From a phage, in sequence record PZ402301.1: a stretch of 64,000 bases of DNA. One strand, written 5' to 3'. Below the pieces are notes generated by a model. That model did not search any database and was not told the origin of the DNA. It saw only the letters and a list, made by a program, of their open reading frames with translations. A program made the translations under genes and the position numbers. Positions 11,333-55,766 of this stretch are shown here, one piece after another. Position 1 is the stretch's first letter; each line of letters begins with the position of its first letter.

Positions 11333-12348
11333 TGTGTTGCCTCTACATATAACTGATTTGCATATTGAATAAGTGCTTCGCGGTCAGAATCAGTGATGTC
11401 TGGAATTGCATTAATGTATTCTTCCATCAACGTCTGAAGAGATTGAACTTCAACTTCTTCACTATCATCTGACTCGACAGAGTTATCAATCTTTGACACA
11501 ACTCGTAATGAATGCACAACTTTTTCTAGTTCAGATTCGAACTTCGTTAGATTTTTGTCTACCTCAGTTACTATAACACGTACTGATAGATTTGTAAAAT
11601 CTTTATAGTCAATTTTTCCCTTAAATGGATATTGAATTCGACGATGCCAGGTGGTGTTGTTTGGAATAAATTCCATTCGTTCTGTTTCTGTATCAAACAT
11701 CCAGAACCCGCGAGGGTCATTCTCGTCACCTGCAGTTAGTGTCCATGGTGTCCCAATATATCTGACGTTAGCAGCCTCAGAGATAGTATGGAAGTGACCA
11801 GACCACACCTCTTTATAAGTCTTAAGGAAATCAGGTTCAAGACCGTGAGATTTCATTCCTTTATAAAAATAAAATCCATTCAGTTCCCAGTGACCAACGC
11901 AAAAAGAAGCAGATGAAGTTTTGATGTGTTCAAGAATTTCACCAGTATTTTCTTCGCACATCCAAGGAATTAAATCAATCAAACATCCGTCAAAATCTAC
12001 TGTAGTAGGCTTATCATATACTTTAACATTAGGATATTTAGCCAAAAGCTCAGTAGAAGCATTTGGAGTTAAAGTATTTTTAAAGTGCATATCATGGTTT
12101 CCTACAACAGTATGTAGGGTAATACCAGCATCATCAAGCATTTGAACTATTTCACGAGCGAACTCCATAGTTTTATGCGTGATTGCTTTTCGCACATCAA
12201 AAATATCGCCGTATTGAATCCATGTAGTAATTCCATTTTTCTTAGAATATTCTATTGCTTGTTTAATTCCATCCAACTGAATGGATTGAACCCACTCATC
12301 ATCGGCTTTAACACCTAAATGCCAATCACCTAAATTTAAAATTTTCAT
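11329..12348 (-). CDS. 47: Recombination endonuclease subunit (Mre11/SbcD-like phosphoesterase)
   Basis: 339 aa as T4 gp47; phosphoesterase motifs GDWHLG, GDIFD, GNHD. Confidence 0.93.
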   Translation of the reverse strand: MKILNLGDWHLGVKADDEWVQSIQLDGIKQAIEYSKKNGITTWIQYGDIFDVRKAITHKTMEFAREIVQMLDDAGITLHTVVGNHDMHFKNTLTPNASTELLAKYPNVKVYDKPTTVDFDGCLIDLIPWMCEENTGEILEHIKTSSASFCVGHWELNGFYFYKGMKSHGLEPDFLKTYKEVWSGHFHTISEAANVRYIGTPWTLTAGDENDPRGFWMFDTETERMEFIPNNTTWHRRIQYPFKGKIDYKDFTNLSVRVIVTEVDKNLTKFESELEKVVHSLRVVSKIDNSVESDDSEEVEVQSLQTLMEEYINAIPDITDSDREALIQYANQLYVEATQ

Positions 12349-18066: not shown

Positions 18067-18537
18067 TTAATCATGTTTCCACACCCCATCGGTATTTGAC
18101 CAAAGTCGCTGATTATCTGATCCTCGCCACAGCTTTTTGGTCGGAAGATTTTTCTCATACTTCCCATCAATAATAACATCAACATATTTAAGCATTTCTA
18201 GTTGTTTAATATCTTCAAACTTATATCCTGTCCACAACCAAATGCTTTTATTGGGATAAAGATTTTTTACTGTTTGAACAATGCAATGAACAACATCTCG
18301 GTTATCAGGATAGAGAGGGTCTCCTCCAGTTATAGTTAATCCTTCTATATAATCATTATTCAAACATTCAATTAATTGTTCTAGTGTTTCACCAGTGAAT
18401 GGAACACCATTTCTAGCATTCCATGTTGATTTATTATAACACCCTTCGCATTTATGCAAACAACCTGTAACGAAAAGAACGACCCTGCATCCAGGGCCAT
18501 TCACAAAATCGCAGGGATAAAATCTATCGTAATTCAT
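18067..18537 (-). CDS. nrdG: Anaerobic ribonucleotide reductase activating protein (radical SAM)
   Basis: 156 aa; CxxxCxxC cluster motif GCLHKCEGC; downstream of nrdD as in T4. Confidence 0.9.
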   Translation of the reverse strand: MNYDRFYPCDFVNGPGCRVVLFVTGCLHKCEGCYNKSTWNARNGVPFTGETLEQLIECLNNDYIEGLTITGGDPLYPDNRDVVHCIVQTVKNLYPNKSIWLWTGYKFEDIKQLEMLKYVDVIIDGKYEKNLPTKKLWRGSDNQRLWSNTDGVWKHD

Positions 18538-20428
18538 TGGTGTTTAACCCTATGCATGATTTCTTTATTTTTGCCAAGATTAAATCCGCGCTCGTTCGGA
18601 TTTCCCAAATAACCGCAAGTTCTTCTTATGGTGTTCATCTTTTTAGGATCAGTTTCTCCACAAATAGAACAAACAAATCCGTTTTCAGTAGGAGTCATTT
18701 CATGGGTACTTCCGCATGTAAAACATTTATCTACTGGCATATTAACACCAAAATAATCTAAATGTTGTGCAGCATAATCCCATACAGCCTCAAGACCTTT
18801 TAGGTTATTTTTCATATCAGGAAGTTCAACATAAGAAATGTGACCACCTGTCGCAATGAAATGATACGGAGCTTCGCGAGAAATCTTTTCAAACGGAGTA
18901 ATATTTTCTTCTACTGAAACGTGGAAACTGTTAGTATACCAGCCTTTATCGGTAACATCTTTTACACTTCCATATTTTTCGGTATCAAGTTTACAGAAGC
19001 GATAGCACAGGTTTTCAGCAGGAGTAGAATATAAGCTAAAAGCAAAACCAGTTCTTTCAGTCCATTGTTTAAGATGAATATTCATTTTAGTTAAAATTTC
19101 TTGTCCAATATCACGACCGACAAGAATATTCAATTCGTGAATACCAATGTATCCTAGGGACACTGAACTTCTACCGTTTTTAAATAACTCAATTATATCG
19201 TCATCAGGTTTAAGACGAACCCCGAATGCACCTTCTTGATAAAGAATAGGAGCAACAGTAGCTTTAACCCCTTTTAAGGAACTAATTCTACACATCAAAG
19301 CTTCAAAACATAAATCCATTCGCTCATTGAACAATTCAGTAAATTTCTGTTCATTGAACTGTGTTCCAATATAAGAATCTAACGCAATACGAGGAAGATT
19401 CAGTGTTACAACACCAAGATTATTACGTCCATCAAGAATTTCATTACCAGTCGAATCTTTCCATACGCCCAAGAAACTACGACAACCCATTGGAGAAACA
19501 GGAATAGATGAACCGGTGATAGCTTTATTGTTCTTAGCCGAAATGATGTCAGGATACATTCTTTTACTTGCACACTCTAGAGCAAGCTGCTTAATATCAT
19601 AGTTCGGATCGTCTTTATAAAGATTAACACCTTCTTCAACGAACATAACAAGTTTAGGGAAAATAGGAGTTATCCCGTCACGACCAAGGCCTTTAATACG
19701 ATTTTTCAGAATTGCTTTCTGAATCATTCGTTCAGTCCAGTCAGTTCCCATGCCAAATGTAATTGTTACAAAAGGCGTTTGTCCGTTTGAACTAAAGAGA
19801 GTATTTATTCAGTCCAGTCAGTTCCCATGCCAAATGTAATTGTTACAAAAGGCGTTTGTCCGTTTGAACTAAAGAGAGTATTTAGTTCATATTCATAAGC
19901 TTGGAATGCATCGTATACGTCTTTTTCTGTTTTAGATTGGGCATAATTCAACGCATCAGCGATTTGCCATTTTTCTGCATCCTCAATATGTTTTGCATAG
20001 GTGCGTTTAACATAAGGAGAAAGGACTTTATCTACATTCGCAAAAGTCGTTCCACCATATTGATGGGAAGCAACCTGTGCAGTAATTTGTGCCATAATTG
20101 CAGTAGCAACACCGATTGATTTAGGAGTTTCAATCTGTGCATTACCGAGCTTAAATCCGTTCTCAAGCATTCCTTTTAAATCTACTAAACAGCAATTAGT
20201 AAATGGAAGAGCAGGGGAATAATCAATATCATGGAAATGAATAATTCCGCTTTCATGCGCTTTCATAATAAAAGACGGGACCATATTTTTGGCAATGTGT
20301 TTAGACACAATACCAGCCATAAGGTCCCGTTGAGTTGGAAAAACACGAGAATCTTTATTAGCATTCTCGTTTAAAAGGTCTTTATTAGTTTTATGAATCA
20401 ATCCTTCAATTTCTTTTTCAATTGTCAT
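18534..20428 (-). pseudogene. nrdD: Anaerobic ribonucleotide reductase NrdD, frameshifted by a 77-bp tandem duplication; intronless
   Basis: Two ORFs (19805..20428, 207 aa; 18534..19751, 405 aa) both carry GMGTDWTE at the break; together about 605 aa as T4 NrdD; C-terminal fragment has the Zn-ribbon motifs CFTCGSTHEMTPTENGFVCSICG and glycyl-radical region RRTCGYLG. Confidence 0.85.
19731..19884. repeat. Perfect tandem direct duplication, 2 x 77 bp (19731-19807 and 19808-19884)
   Basis: Unit ttcagtccagtcagttcccatgccaaatgtaattgttacaaaaggcgtttgtccgtttgaactaaagagagtattta occurs twice head-to-tail. Confidence 0.95.
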
Positions 20429-37920: not shown

Positions 37921-38134
37921 ATTTTACTTCCTCACCTGTTCCCAAATCATATTCAACTAAACGAATAGGCTCATGAATGCCATATCCCTGAACAGAAATT
38001 TCTGTCGTAGGATAAATTCCACTAATATCACCCATGTTCCATGCTTCATTAAATTGCTGTTCGCCTGAATTACTAAACCACTCGGCGAAAGCATTTAGCA
38101 CATCTTTAGAACCTTCAATAATTATCTTTGCCAT
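37913..38134 (-). CDS. Hypothetical protein
   Basis: 73 aa ORF; start overlaps GrcA-like stop. Confidence 0.4.
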   Translation of the reverse strand: MAKIIIEGSKDVLNAFAEWFSNSGEQQFNEAWNMGDISGIYPTTEISVQGYGIHEPIRLVEYDLGTGEEVKYD

Positions 38135-38496
38135 TACAGACTCTCAGTAAAGGTACGAGCGATAACGTCGCGCTGCTGTTCCGGAGTCAGAGAGTTAAAG
38201 CGAACTGCATAACCGGATACACGGATGGTCAGCTGCGGATATTTTTCCGGATGCTTAACTGCATCTTCCAGAGTTTCACGACGCAGAACGTTTACGTTCA
38301 GGTGTTGACCACCCTCAATTTTAACTGTAGGATGTGTTTCAATTTCAATTTCACGGGCATGCAAACCATAGAAAATTTCTGGGTCTACAAAAGAGTCCTC
38401 TTTAAAAGTTTTAGAGACAATAATTCGTGCTTGAATACCGTCTTCAAAATAAATAGTACCTTTATGCGTGCCTTCAAGAATTTGATATGCTTTCAT
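38134..38496 (-). CDS. Autonomous glycyl radical cofactor (GrcA/YfiD-like; T4 Y06I-type)
   Basis: ATG at 38494-38496 with SD GAGAGG; C-terminus ...[60 protein letters not shown] carries the RVSGY glycyl-radical motif. Confidence 0.85.
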
Positions 38497-38504
38497 ATAA
38501 CCTC

Positions 38505-38885
38505 TCAATTAGAAAATAAATTTATCCAAGATTGCTCTTTAATTAAAAATGGCTCAGAATCATATGCCATTAAACTTTGGGTGATTAGTCCTTTAAAAGG
38601 TCCATCAATAAATTCCATGGTAAAATATGGAATTTTATTCATTAATCTTGCATTAGGAGCAGTGCACAAAACTCTGCATCCTTTGAATACGCCTTTTTGT
38701 AATTTGTATTGCTTAGGATAAAATTCGCTCAAGACGTTGTTATTTGCCAAAATTTCAAAATGATTCACCAATTTATTTTTAATAGTTTTTGGCGAAAAAT
38801 AAAGATATTCGAAAAGTTGCGTGTCTGTCATCATTGCATTCCGATTATGAAAAACTGTGGACGAGTAATACCACCAATGCAGCAT
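38505..38885 (-). CDS. Hypothetical protein
   Basis: 126 aa ORF. Confidence 0.4.
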
Positions 38886-46279: not shown

Positions 46280-46355
46280 TGGTCGAGGCAGTAGGGATCG
46301 AACCTACGACCTAGGACTTAGAAGGTCCTTGCTCTTCCTTCTGAGCTATGCCTCG
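46280..46355 (-). tRNA. tRNA-Arg (anticodon UCU)
   Basis: Manual fold of reverse complement: acceptor CGAGGCA/TGCCTCG, anticodon loop CUUCUAA, T-loop TTCGATC, encoded CCA. Confidence 0.8.
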
Positions 46356-46359
46356 GATT

Positions 46360-46434
46360 TGGCGGACATGCATGGATTCGAACCATGGACCAATTGATTA
46401 ACAGTCAACTGCTCTACCACTGAGCTACACATCC
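46360..46434 (-). tRNA. tRNA-Asn (anticodon GUU)
   Basis: Manual fold: acceptor GGATGTG/CATGTCC, D-arm GCTCAGTGGTAGAGC, anticodon loop CUGUUAA, T-loop TTCGAAT, CCA. Confidence 0.75.
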
Positions 46435-46438
46435 AAAT

Positions 46439-46525
46439 TGGTGGGGAGTGATGGAGTCGAACCACCCGAGTCGCAATGACAATGGATTTACAGTCCACAC
46501 CGCTACCTCTACGGGATAACTCCCC
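46439..46525 (-). tRNA. tRNA-Tyr (anticodon GUA), long variable arm
   Basis: Manual fold: acceptor GGGGAGT/ACTCCCC, anticodon loop CUGUAAA, 87 nt with extra arm, CCA. Confidence 0.75.
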
Positions 46526-46538
46526 TTAATTCTTAATT

Positions 46539-46613
46539 TGGTGGCCCTGGGTGGAATTGAACCACCATCTGGCGATTATGAGTCGCTTGCTTGAACCTTC
46601 CAGCTACAGGGCC
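46539..46613 (-). tRNA. tRNA with anticodon CAU (Met, or Ile if lysidine-modified as in T4)
   Basis: Manual fold: acceptor GGCCCTG/CAGGGCC, anticodon loop CUCAUAA, T-loop TTCAATT, CCA. Confidence 0.7.
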
Positions 46614-46621
46614 AAATTTTC

Positions 46622-47104
46622 TTATTTTATGTAATATTTATTTAAAAACTTTCTAGCTTGAGTATGGCTAACATTTATAGCGTTTGCATAATTTTTAATA
46701 AAACCTCGTTCATCCATATTAAAATTTTCTAATATTTTTAATCGTCTAGTTATCTCATCTTGACTTAAGGTACTTGCATTATTTTTAGAAATTTTTTCTA
46801 AGGACTGCGCCGAGTGTTTTCGACCATTAAAATTAAAATTTTTAGATTTTGGAGGAAATCTAGCATTTAGTCTCGCATCTTTTGTATTTTGATTATTAGT
46901 TGCGCAATATATGTTATTTAATGAATATGGTCCTTTATCGCCGAAACGGCACATGCAATATTCATGACCCTTTCTTCCACGCTTATCATAATTTCCCGTT
47001 GATTTCCACCAATGCAGCCATTCATCAAAAGTTAAATTCCATTCAATGTTTCTACGTATAGCAGAATTCCGCTGAGAAATATATTTTGCATAATCTTCTT
47101 TCAT
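46622..47104 (-). CDS. Homing-endonuclease-like protein (NUMOD3-type motif, C-terminal HTH-like tail)
   Basis: About 160 aa; NGRKHSAQSLEKISK resembles NUMOD3; C-terminus NVSHTQARKFLNKY parallels the segB-like ORF; catalytic domain type unclear. Confidence 0.5.
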   Translation of the reverse strand: MKEDYAKYISQRNSAIRRNIEWNLTFDEWLHWWKSTGNYDKRGRKGHEYCMCRFGDKGPYSLNNIYCATNNQNTKDARLNARFPPKSKNFNFNGRKHSAQSLEKISKNNASTLSQDEITRRLKILENFNMDERGFIKNYANAINVSHTQARKFLNKYYIK

Positions 47105-47151
47105 CACAAATTTCTCTACTTATTCAATACACTGAGCTAAATCAGCAAAAC

Positions 47152-47241
47152 TGGCGGAGGCGATAGGATTTGAACCTATGAGTCGCCGGAGCGACTGCCG
47201 GTTTTCAAGACCGGTGCATTAAACCACTCTGCCACGCCTCC
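47152..47241 (-). tRNA. tRNA-Ser (anticodon UGA), long variable arm
   Basis: Manual fold: acceptor GGAGGCG/CGCCTCC, anticodon loop CUUGAAA, T-loop TTCAAAT, CCA. Confidence 0.8.
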
Positions 47242-47247
47242 AAATAT

Positions 47248-47856
47248 TTATATACTGTTAATTTGATTTAGAATTCTTTTTGCTTGAGTATGACTTACTC
47301 CAATATGCTTAGCATATTTATATAATTCACCACGCTTAGAAAAATCATATAATTTAGAAATTTCTATTCTTCTTTTTCTTTCATCCGCAGAAACTTTTGC
47401 TTCGTTTGCTTTTGCTATTTTACGTTTAGCTTCTTGAGAATGAGTTTTACCAGCAAAGCCATTCTTCATTAATCCATTTGAAGACCATCCTTTTAATTTT
47501 CCATTAGAATGAGCCTTTTTAACACCCAATGAAATTAATTCGCGTTGCTGATCTGTCATAGGATAATTATTTATATGGTCCCATCCACCTTCACCGCCAA
47601 GTTTTAAATTATACACATCTGGTCTATTTAAAAACTCTTCTGTGACAATATTTTTCTCGGCTTCAAGCATAGATTCTTTATCATCAAAATACTCTAATAT
47701 TTCTTTAGAGAAATTTTCTATACCATACTTGTCTTGGGCTCTTTTTAATAATTTACCAGAACCCATATATCCATCATCTAAATTTTCGGTAGAATGCACA
47801 CCAATATAAATTTTATTATTAATTTTATTTGTTATTTTATAAAGATAAAAATGCAT
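47248..47856 (-). mobile_element. segB: GIY-YIG homing endonuclease gene (SegB-like) inside the tRNA cluster
   Basis: Start taken at MHFYLYKITNKINNKIYIGVHST (GIY-YIG core); NUMOD3-like GKTHSQEAKRKIAKA; C-terminal HTH-like tail; T4 segB also sits in the tRNA cluster. Confidence 0.7.
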
Positions 47857-47902
47857 ATCAGTCCCTAATAAAGAACTGAGCGTCTCACGACGAGTCATAA
47901 AT

Positions 47903-47976
<74 letters not shown>

Positions 47977-47981
47977 AAATT

Positions 47982-48068
47982 TGGTGCGAGAAGTGGGACT
48001 CGAACCCACAAGGAAATCATTCCGCAGCATTTTAAGTGCTGTGCCTTTACCAATTTGACCATTCTCGC
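47982..48068 (-). tRNA. tRNA-Leu (anticodon UAA), long variable arm
   Basis: Manual fold: acceptor GCGAGAA/TTCTCGC, anticodon loop CUUAAAA, T-loop TTCGAGT, CCA. Confidence 0.8.
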
Positions 48069-48069
48069 G

Positions 48070-48142
48070 CTGGGAATAAAGGACTTGAACCTTTGCATCT
48101 AGCAGTCAAAGTGCTATGCCTTACCAACTTGGCTAATTCCCA
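48070..48142 (-). tRNA. tRNA-Gln (anticodon UUG), CCA not encoded
   Basis: Manual fold: acceptor TGGGAAT/ATTCCCA, anticodon loop CUUUGAC; 3' end abuts tRNA-Leu 5' end as in the T4 Gln-Leu dimeric precursor. Confidence 0.8.
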
Positions 48143-53464: not shown

Positions 53465-54055
53465 ATGCTCTTTACATTTTTTGATCCGATTGAATATGCG
53501 GCCAAAACGGTGAATAAAAACGCGCCGACTATTCCTATGACAGATATTTTTAGAAACTATAAAGACTATTTCAAACGTGCTCTTGCGGGATACCGTTTAC
53601 GTACTTATTATATTAAAGGTTCACCACGCCCGGAAGAATTAGCAAACGCTATATATGGAAATCCACAGTTGTATTGGGTTTTATTGATGTGTAATGATAA
53701 TTATGATCCGTATTATGGATGGATTACTTCGCAAGAAGCTGCTTATCAAGCATCTATCCAAAAATACAAAAATGTAGGTGGAGACCAAATAGTATATCAT
53801 GTGAATGAGAATGGTGAAAAATTTTATAATTTAATATCATATGATGATAACCCATATGTTTGGTATGACAAAGGCGATAAAGCTAGAAAATATCCTCAAT
53901 ATGAAGGAGCACTTGCTGCGGTCGATACGTATGAAGCTGCTGTTCTTGAAAATGAAAAACTTCGTCAAATAAAAATAATAGCAAAATCAGACATCAATTC
54001 ATTTATGAACGACCTTATACGTATAATGGAGAAATCTTATGGAAATGATAAGTAA
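53465..54055 (+). CDS. 53: Baseplate wedge protein gp53
   Basis: 196 aa as T4 gp53; SD GGAGG; late promoter upstream. Confidence 0.93.
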   Translation: MLFTFFDPIEYAAKTVNKNAPTIPMTDIFRNYKDYFKRALAGYRLRTYYIKGSPRPEELANAIYGNPQLYWVLLMCNDNYDPYYGWITSQEAAYQASIQKYKNVGGDQIVYHVNENGEKFYNLISYDDNPYVWYDKGDKARKYPQYEGALAAVDTYEAAVLENEKLRQIKIIAKSDINSFMNDLIRIMEKSYGNDK

Positions 54056-55766
54056 TAACCTTAATTGGTTTGTTGGTGTTGTTGAAGATAGAATGGACCC
54101 ATTAAAATTAGGTCGTGTTCGTGTTCGTGTAGTTGGTCTGCATCCACCTCAAAGAGCACAAGGCGACGTAATGGGTATTCCAACTGATAAATTACCATGG
54201 ATGTCAGTTATTCAACCTATAACTTCTGCAGCAATGTCTGGAATTGGAGGCTCCGTTACTGGTCCAGTAGAAGGAACTAGAGTTTATGGTCATTTTTTAG
54301 ACAAATGGAAAACTAACGGAATTGTCCTTGGCACATATGGCGGAATAGTTCGCGAAAAACCTAATAGACTTGAAGGATTTTCTGACCCAACTGGACAGTA
54401 TCCTAGACGTCTAGGAAATGATACTAACGTATTAAACCAAGGCGGAGAAGTAGGATATGATTCGTCTTCTAATATTATCCAAGATAGCAATCTAGACACT
54501 GCGATAAATCCCGATGATAGACCACTATCAGAAATTCCAACTGATGATAATCCAAATATGTCAATGGCTGAAATGCTTCGCCGTGATGAAGGATTAAGAC
54601 TAAAAGTTTATTGGGATACTGAAGGATATCCGACAATTGGTATTGGTCATCTTATCATGAAGCAGCCAGTTCGTGATATGACTCAAATTAATAAAGTTTT
54701 ATCAAAACAAGTTGGTCGTGAAATTACCGGAAATCCAGGTTCTATTACAATGGAAGAAGCGGTAGCTTTATTTGAACGTGATTTGGCTGATATGCAACGT
54801 GACATTAAATCACATTCTAAAGTTGGCCCAGTTTGGAAAGCAGTTAATCGTTCTCGTCAAATGGCATTAGAAAATATGGCATTTCAGATGGGCGTTGGCG
54901 GTGTAGCTAAATTTAACACAATGTTAACAGCTATGTTAGCCGGAGATTGGGAAAAAGCATATAAAGCTGGTCGTGATTCATTGTGGTATCAACAAACAAA
55001 AGGCCGTGCATCTCGTGTTACCATGATTATTCTTACAGGTAATTTGGAATCATACGGTATTGAAGTGAAAACACCAGCTAGGTCTTTGTCAGCAATGGCT
55101 GCTACTGCAGCAAAGTCTTCTGATCCAGCTGACCCTCCTATTCCGAATGATTCGAGAATTTTATTTAAAGAACCTGTTTCTTCATATAAAGGTGAATATC
55201 CATATGTTCACACAATGGAAACTGAAAGCGGTCATATTCAGGAATTTGATGATACCCCTGGGCAAGAGCGATACAGATTAGTTCATCCGACTGGAACGTA
55301 TGAGGAAGTATCACCGTCAGGAAGAAGAACAAGAAAAACTGTTGATAATTTGTATGATATAACAAATGCTGATGGTAATTTTTTGGTAGCTGGCGATAAA
55401 AAGACTAACGTCGGTGGATCAGAAATTTATTACAACATGGATAATCGTCTTCACCAAATAGATGGAAGCAACACAATATTTGTCCGTGGCGATGAAACTA
55501 AGACAGTTGAAGGTAATGGAACTATCCTAGTTAAAGGTAATGTTACTATTGTAGTCGAAGGTAATGCTGACATTACAGTTAAAGGAGATGCTACCACTTT
55601 AGTTGAAGGAAATCAGACTAATACAGTAAATGGAAATCTTTCTTGGAAAGTTGCTGGAACAGTTGATTGGGACGTTGGTGGTGATTGGACAGAAAAAATG
55701 GCATCTATGAGTTCTATTTCATCTGGTCAATACACAATTGATGGATCGAGGATTGACATTGGCTAA
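54039..55766 (+). CDS. 5: Baseplate hub plus tail lysozyme gp5
   Basis: 575 aa as T4 gp5; internal lysozyme domain (MAEMLRRDEGLRLKVYWDTEGYPTIGIGHL) and C-terminal beta-helix VxGxxxxxV repeats. Confidence 0.95.
   Translation: MEMISNNLNWFVGVVEDRMDPLKLGRVRVRVVGLHPPQRAQGDVMGIPTDKLPWMSVIQPITSAAMSGIGGSVTGPVEGTRVYGHFLDKWKTNGIVLGTYGGIVREKPNRLEGFSDPTGQYPRRLGNDTNVLNQGGEVGYDSSSNIIQDSNLDTAINPDDRPLSEIPTDDNPNMSMAEMLRRDEGLRLKVYWDTEGYPTIGIGHLIMKQPVRDMTQINKVLSKQVGREITGNPGSITMEEAVALFERDLADMQRDIKSHSKVGPVWKAVNRSRQMALENMAFQMGVGGVAKFNTMLTAMLAGDWEKAYKAGRDSLWYQQTKGRASRVTMIILTGNLESYGIEVKTPARSLSAMAATAAKSSDPADPPIPNDSRILFKEPVSSYKGEYPYVHTMETESGHIQEFDDTPGQERYRLVHPTGTYEEVSPSGRRTRKTVDNLYDITNADGNFLVAGDKKTNVGGSEIYYNMDNRLHQIDGSNTIFVRGDETKTVEGNGTILVKGNVTIVVEGNADITVKGDATTLVEGNQTNTVNGNLSWKVAGTVDWDVGGDWTEKMASMSSISSGQYTIDGSRIDIG

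Follow-up and report, generated by a model that had tools for sequence, protein, structure and literature searches.

The class III ribonucleotide reductase (RNR) of phage T4 is a close described counterpart of the locus presented here. The T4 large subunit, NrdD (PDB 1H78/1HK8), is a 605-aa protein with Zn-ribbon cysteines and a glycyl-radical motif; its gene is followed directly by nrdG and is non-essential under aerobic growth. The large subunit of a phage RNR may also be encoded by two ORFs, as in Aeromonas phage Aeh1, whose nrdA was reportedly found by Friedrich et al. in 2007 to be split by mobE, with both halves carrying translation signals and with activity shown.

A precedent of another kind comes from genome assembly. 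T4-like phages use headful packaging and have circularly permuted genomes, and 77 is the largest default k of SPAdes for 150-nt reads. SPAdes contigs with identical 77-bp ends have been documented for circularly permuted phages (PMC9409062), and a 127-bp equivalent has been reported for phages, with very high coverage making false graph branches (PMC5923482).

The DNA analyzed in this study, referred to below as the window, is a 64,000-nt stretch of the phage record PZ402301.1. It represents a Tequatrovirus: many T4-like phages of Escherichia and Shigella match it at 96-98% DNA identity, and none of the relatives matched was a record identical to the window. Its nrdD gene contains a perfect tandem duplication of 77 bp, which, in our view, very probably is an untrimmed assembler k-mer overlap and not a mutation of the phage. 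The duplication, the two nrdD ORFs and the related intact genes are as follows (window coordinates).

19808-19884, minus strand: copy 1 in the gene sense, CDS nt 545-621, codons 182-207, ...LNTLFSSNGQTPFVTITFGMGTDWTE, an exact 77-mer
19731-19807, minus strand: copy 2 in the gene sense, entered out of frame
Copy/copy junction on the plus strand: GTATTTA, followed in copy order by TTCAGTCC
The same junction in longer form: ...AAGAGAGTATTTA, followed by TTCAGTCCAGTCAG...
19805-20428, minus strand: N-terminal nrdD ORF, 207 aa, ending ...FGMGTDWTE, matching positions 1-170 of 562 of the Pfam NRDD profile
18534-19751, minus strand: C-terminal nrdD ORF, 405 aa, starting MGTDWTE, matching NRDD profile positions 172-562 plus Gly_radical
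18067-18537, minus strand: nrdG activase, 156 aa, intact, with a 4-nt overlap at the nrdD stop
38134-38508, minus strand: GrcA/YfiD-like ORF, 124 aa, intact, PF01228 with E=2e-18, glycyl-radical motif RVSGYAV

Direct sequence comparison showed that the two copies are identical at 77/77 positions and lie head-to-tail without a spacer. The period-77 identity stops exactly at the copy edges, with 0 bases of further identity on either side, and this extension check revealed no in-register microhomology at the repeat boundaries. An exact tandem repeat of 77 bp is far beyond chance, and Tandem Repeats Finder (TRF) reported no second array of this type in the whole 64-kb window. The nearest short direct repeats, GTTCA/CTTCA, one of which differs by 1 base in the consensus, are spaced 78 bp apart and not 77; they would give a different junction, and slippage between short repeats was therefore rejected. 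An imperfect 24/48-nt tandem array is also present at 55503-55637, where it encodes a C-terminal beta-helix repeat (VxGxxxxx) in the ORF of the gp5 baseplate hub/lysozyme (54039-55766); this array is ordinary.

The first three bases of copy 2 form a TAA triplet at the copy/copy junction, at which the N-terminal ORF stops, and the deposited nrdD is thereby broken after codon 207 and has no single uninterrupted frame. When one copy was removed in silico, a single 605-aa nrdD ORF was obtained. Its product aligns with T4 NrdD (PDB 1H78) without gaps, residues 1-605 on 1-605, and shares 99% identity with unbroken NrdDs of 605 aa from T4-like phages. It contains both PF13597 and PF01228 and, being co-linear with T4 NrdD, qualifies as a class III RNR large subunit; of the two deposited ORFs, the C-terminal one carries the glycyl-radical motif RRTCGYLG and the Zn-ribbon. 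Like T4 NrdD, the repaired protein has 605 aa, Zn-ribbon cysteines, a glycyl-radical motif and nrdG directly downstream, and it differs from the T4 counterpart in the absence of the group I intron from the gene, in the substitutions V182L and T201M, and in the break after codon 207 of the deposited ORF. The initial annotation had described a perfect 77-bp tandem duplication that divides nrdD into ORFs of 207 and 405 aa, both of which were found at the ends it gave, and had stated that deletion of one copy yields an NrdD of about 605 aa with intact Zn-ribbon and glycyl-radical regions, in agreement with the Pfam and alignment results. Its statement that nrdG, nrdH and a GrcA-like gene are intact also holds, all three being found whole; the NrdH-like glutaredoxin is accompanied in the window by an intact NrdC.

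Several other features of the window and its relatives were recorded. The 4-nt overlap of nrdG and nrdD (18534-18537) leaves no room for a mobC-like free-standing endonuclease between these genes; T4 mobC is listed at the nrdG/nrdD site (PMC2988022). At the 3' end of nrdD, four window-private and apparently synonymous substitutions are clustered (18591, 18594, 18615 and 18630), with no amino-acid differences seen in this cluster, which may be a small recombination patch. Phages GEP001 and SH-1 carry a ∼595-bp insertion at the position corresponding to ∼12342-12348 of the window, between genes 47 and a-gt, which in GEP001 includes an annotated HNH endonuclease gene; the window is without it. 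Eight tRNA genes are clustered on the minus strand at 46283-48142, forming a T4-type tRNA region.

The distribution of the duplication was analyzed with a 46-mer probe centered on the copy/copy junction, each half of which is too short to seed megablast alone. No match to this probe was found in 50,697 GenBank phage records, and an exact junction 32-mer was not found in IMG/VR, JGI metagenomes or GTDB genomes. Every listed relative carries one copy, as judged from the alignment of the nrdD query, which matches each of them in two overlapping pieces with a span that is 77 bp shorter. Exact records of the 207-aa and 405-aa ORFs were absent from 153 billion gene positions and 15 billion proteins, and an exact lookup of the repaired NrdD with L182 or V182, as a trace of another assembly of the phage, also returned none. 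On these database comparisons, the duplication appears to be unique to the PZ402301.1 sequence. Across ∼25 kb around nrdD, comparison with close relatives revealed only small indels, located in intergenic spacers or occurring as compensating pairs; within this region the genome appears otherwise clean, with the 77-bp block as the one large anomaly.

A second peculiarity of the locus lies immediately beside the repeat, at its outer edge. It is a single-base difference that lies close to the homologue of the insertion site of the nrdD group I intron. The initial annotation had missed both this SNP and the fact that the intron insertion site and the homing site of I-TevII are nearby. The positions concerned are the following.

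19885: near-private SNP, G on the plus strand and C in relatives, CDS nt 544, V182L
19890-19891, minus strand: counterpart of the position at which nrdD is interrupted by the group I intron, CDS nt 538/539, placed by alignment with phage IME537
19875-19878, minus strand: predicted I-TevII cleavage positions, which fall in copy 1 and follow the insertion site by 13 and 15 nt

The repeat aside, position 19885 (CDS nt 544) is the single base that distinguishes the window from phage WL-3 across CDS nt 500-720. The allele was traced with a 55-mer centered on 19885, designed such that every 28-nt seed must include that base. With the common base, the probe matched 585 records, 402 of them at 100%, and, again apart from the repeat, 19885 is the sole difference from this 402-record consensus 55-mer. 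With the window allele, two records were matched, those of Shigella phages sb1 and sb4; these were rejected as true matches, as further changes there give a different codon context. A 41-mer carrying the window allele gave no match in IMG/VR, JGI metagenomes or GTDB genomes, whereas the control allele was found. It should be noted that nrdD of phage sb1 (PQ666539; L007 254-2071), which has unusual substitutions beside CDS nt 544, is itself annotated as two CDS, nrdD_1 and nrdD_2, with the break close to the 3' end; the probable cause is a fault in the sequencing or assembly of PQ666539. Across nrdG, nrdD and gene 49, about 0.24-0.28% of the bases are shared with none of the aligned relatives. 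The chance that a private base falls on either of the positions flanking the repeat is thus roughly 0.5%, and because of this low value the SNP and the duplication are probably linked. The V182L change, which lies 6 nt downstream of the position of the nrdD intron, may either confer natural resistance to the endonuclease or reflect heterogeneity of the phage stock at this base.

Such a link is predicted by the assembly explanation. In a de Bruijn graph with k=77, the bubble created by a SNP is bounded by the 77-mers that flank the variable base, and a repeat abutting the SNP is therefore expected. For a circularly permuted T4-like genome, a de Bruijn assembler would give a 'circular' contig with the same k bases at both ends, and the final k would be 77 under SPAdes defaults on 150-nt reads. 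The contig would have been opened at a graph vertex beside a single-base polymorphism at 19885 that the assembler left unresolved. It would then have been circularized or rotated, or two contigs would have been joined, with the 77-bp overlap left on, which would place the two copies side by side within nrdD. We infer the use of this assembler and this k, the heterogeneity of the reads at 19885, and the failure to trim the overlap.

To simulate the procedure, the locus with one copy was closed into a circle, both G and C were allowed at 19885, and a de Bruijn graph was constructed with k=77. The graph contained two branching vertices, one of which was the repeated 77-mer (19731-19807). A contig starting and ending at this 77-mer had identical 77-bp ends, and when it was rotated untrimmed, it reproduced window positions 19701-19920 base for base. 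The assembly explanation accounts for the length of the repeat, its perfect identity, the lack of microhomology, the unique junction and the abutting SNP. The locus combines a repeat length equal to an assembler k, identical adjacent copies with no sign of a target site or microhomology, a genome type that assembles as a circle, and a graph vertex beside a polymorphic site. With typical SPAdes terminal overlaps it has in common the length of 77, the perfect copies without a spacer, the circularly permuted phage and the disappearance of the anomaly on trimming. Unlike in those cases, the copies are internal and adjacent, which requires a later untrimmed rotation or join; in the literature searched we found nothing specific on internal, post-rotation k-mer duplications. 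Simple SNP bubbles are normally collapsed by SPAdes, and the bubble version of the explanation therefore needs very high coverage or real heterogeneity. Two further points stand against an artefact: the nearness of the repeat to the nrdD intron insertion site and the putative I-TevII cut is not predicted by the model, and a real lesion in nrdD would be tolerated in the laboratory, the gene being dispensable aerobically.

We consider a real duplication of any origin unlikely. In its plainest form, a very recent tandem duplication, generated by replication or illegitimate recombination, would have inactivated nrdD in this phage stock, a loss tolerated in aerobic propagation, for which class III RNR is not required. 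Such an event, to which we assign a low probability, is compatible with the presence of the repeat in the sequence as given, with the identity of the copies, which is expected of a recent event, with the aerobic dispensability of T4 nrdD, and with the intact state of nrdG, nrdH, nrdC and the GrcA-like gene. Arguing against it is the absence of in-register microhomology and of the junction from any other genome (GenBank phages, IMG/VR, JGI metagenomes, GTDB). Moreover, the exact length of 77 has no biological meaning, yet it is the modal assembler overlap, and the rare SNP at 19885 would need a second, independent mutation alongside. A more specific origin, which we regard as less probable still, is the faulty repair of an I-TevII break made in the intronless nrdD during a mixed infection with an intron-bearing relative. 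Both ends would have been extended on a template and joined out of register, doubling the 77 bp around the cut, and the neighboring base change would stem from error-prone synthesis or co-conversion. Rfam detected no group I intron anywhere in the window. In phage IME537, nrdD is interrupted by a group I intron of 1045 nt that contains a homing-endonuclease gene, and the inferred splice, GAGT/ATGAAG, gives AYEYEV, matching T4 NrdD. The intron together with the endonuclease gene is present in full in 44 related phage records, which makes exposure to I-TevII plausible. In the gene sense, the first base of the repeat is CDS nt 545, and 6 nt separate it from the insertion site upstream. According to Bell-Pedersen et al., I-TevII was in 1990 reported to cut the intronless allele 13 and 15 nt past this site. 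The cut, in the REBASE site of I-TevII (GCTTATGAGTATGAAGTGAACACGTTATTC), would fall at CDS nt 551-554, within the repeat; no explicit number for the cleavage coordinate was present in the literature searched. If the 13/15-nt figure is right, the SNP at nt 544 lies inside the ∼30-bp homing site and the cut in copy 1, so that the repeat (nt 545-621) encloses the cut just downstream of the insertion site at nt 538/539. This geometry would favor break repair. The exact length of 77 is left unexplained by it, and the base change lies at the outer repeat edge, in DNA that the break would have left alone, instead of where the copies meet. High-fidelity homologous recombination is the route by which T4 mends such breaks, and the literature searched describes no product of this kind.

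That the interrupted gene is still functional is scarcely credible. The two fragments would have to form an active NrdD in the manner of genes in pieces, or ribosomes would have to bypass 77 nt, taking off at the GAA preceding UAA at the end of copy 1 and landing at the identical GAA that ends copy 2, to produce the wild-type protein. The two ORFs together do span the whole protein, the C-terminal one opening at an in-frame ATG (M201), and GAA followed by UAA does have an identical GAA 77 nt downstream, by construction. However, there is no Shine-Dalgarno motif upstream of the ATG of the C-terminal ORF, no slippery heptamer of the X XXY YYZ type, and no significant RNA fold at the junction (z -1.7 and -1.8); rescue by frameshifting, bypass or reinitiation was rejected on these grounds. 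Nor is the arrangement conserved in any relative (GenBank phages, IMG/VR). The ATG results from a change of codon 201 from ACG (T201M), located at CDS nt 602 in each copy (19750 and 19827). This substitution is rare, being found in 0/23 full-length protein matches compared. Phage vB_EcoM_WL-3, however, has it in an uninterrupted nrdD, and selection of the ATG as a start codon for the C-terminal fragment was therefore rejected. As in the bypass of T4 gene 60, a stop comes after the take-off codon and the landing codon further downstream is identical, a resemblance inherent in every duplication that makes a stop codon where its copies meet. Unlike in gene 60, the gap measures 77 nt and not 50 nt, a significant take-off hairpin is lacking, and neither a known nascent-peptide signal nor conservation accompanies it. 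The locus resembles the RNR of phage Aeh1 in that a large subunit is coded as two ORFs, and differs from it in having no inserted endonuclease gene, no ribosome-binding site and no conservation.

The initial annotation had left open whether the duplication is a pseudogenizing mutation or an artefact. The length of 77, the abutting SNP, the lack of microhomology and the unique junction favor the latter. Its suggestion that the anaerobic dNTP pathway has been recently and specifically broken is probably untrue of the phage itself, because the evidence for an assembly artefact is the stronger.

Were the duplication real, it would mean that a T-even phage has lost its class III RNR, with mutagenic repair at an I-TevII homing site as a possible route. 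Repair of an I-TevII break would have destroyed the homing site at the cost of a dispensable gene, and would provide a natural phage example of a break by a homing endonuclease that was repaired mutagenically instead of leading to homing. If the repeat is an untrimmed assembler overlap, the deposited genome holds a false nrdD pseudogene, and the value of the finding is mainly curatorial. The same signature could be used as a flag in databases: a perfect tandem repeat with a length equal to a k of 55, 77 or 127, without microhomology, with a private SNP abutting it, and occurring in one record only. If the repeat is such an overlap, automatic annotation of the deposited sequence would wrongly give two nrdD fragments and a broken anaerobic dNTP pathway; most likely, the phage itself carries a single copy of the 77-bp segment and encodes an intact 605-aa NrdD.
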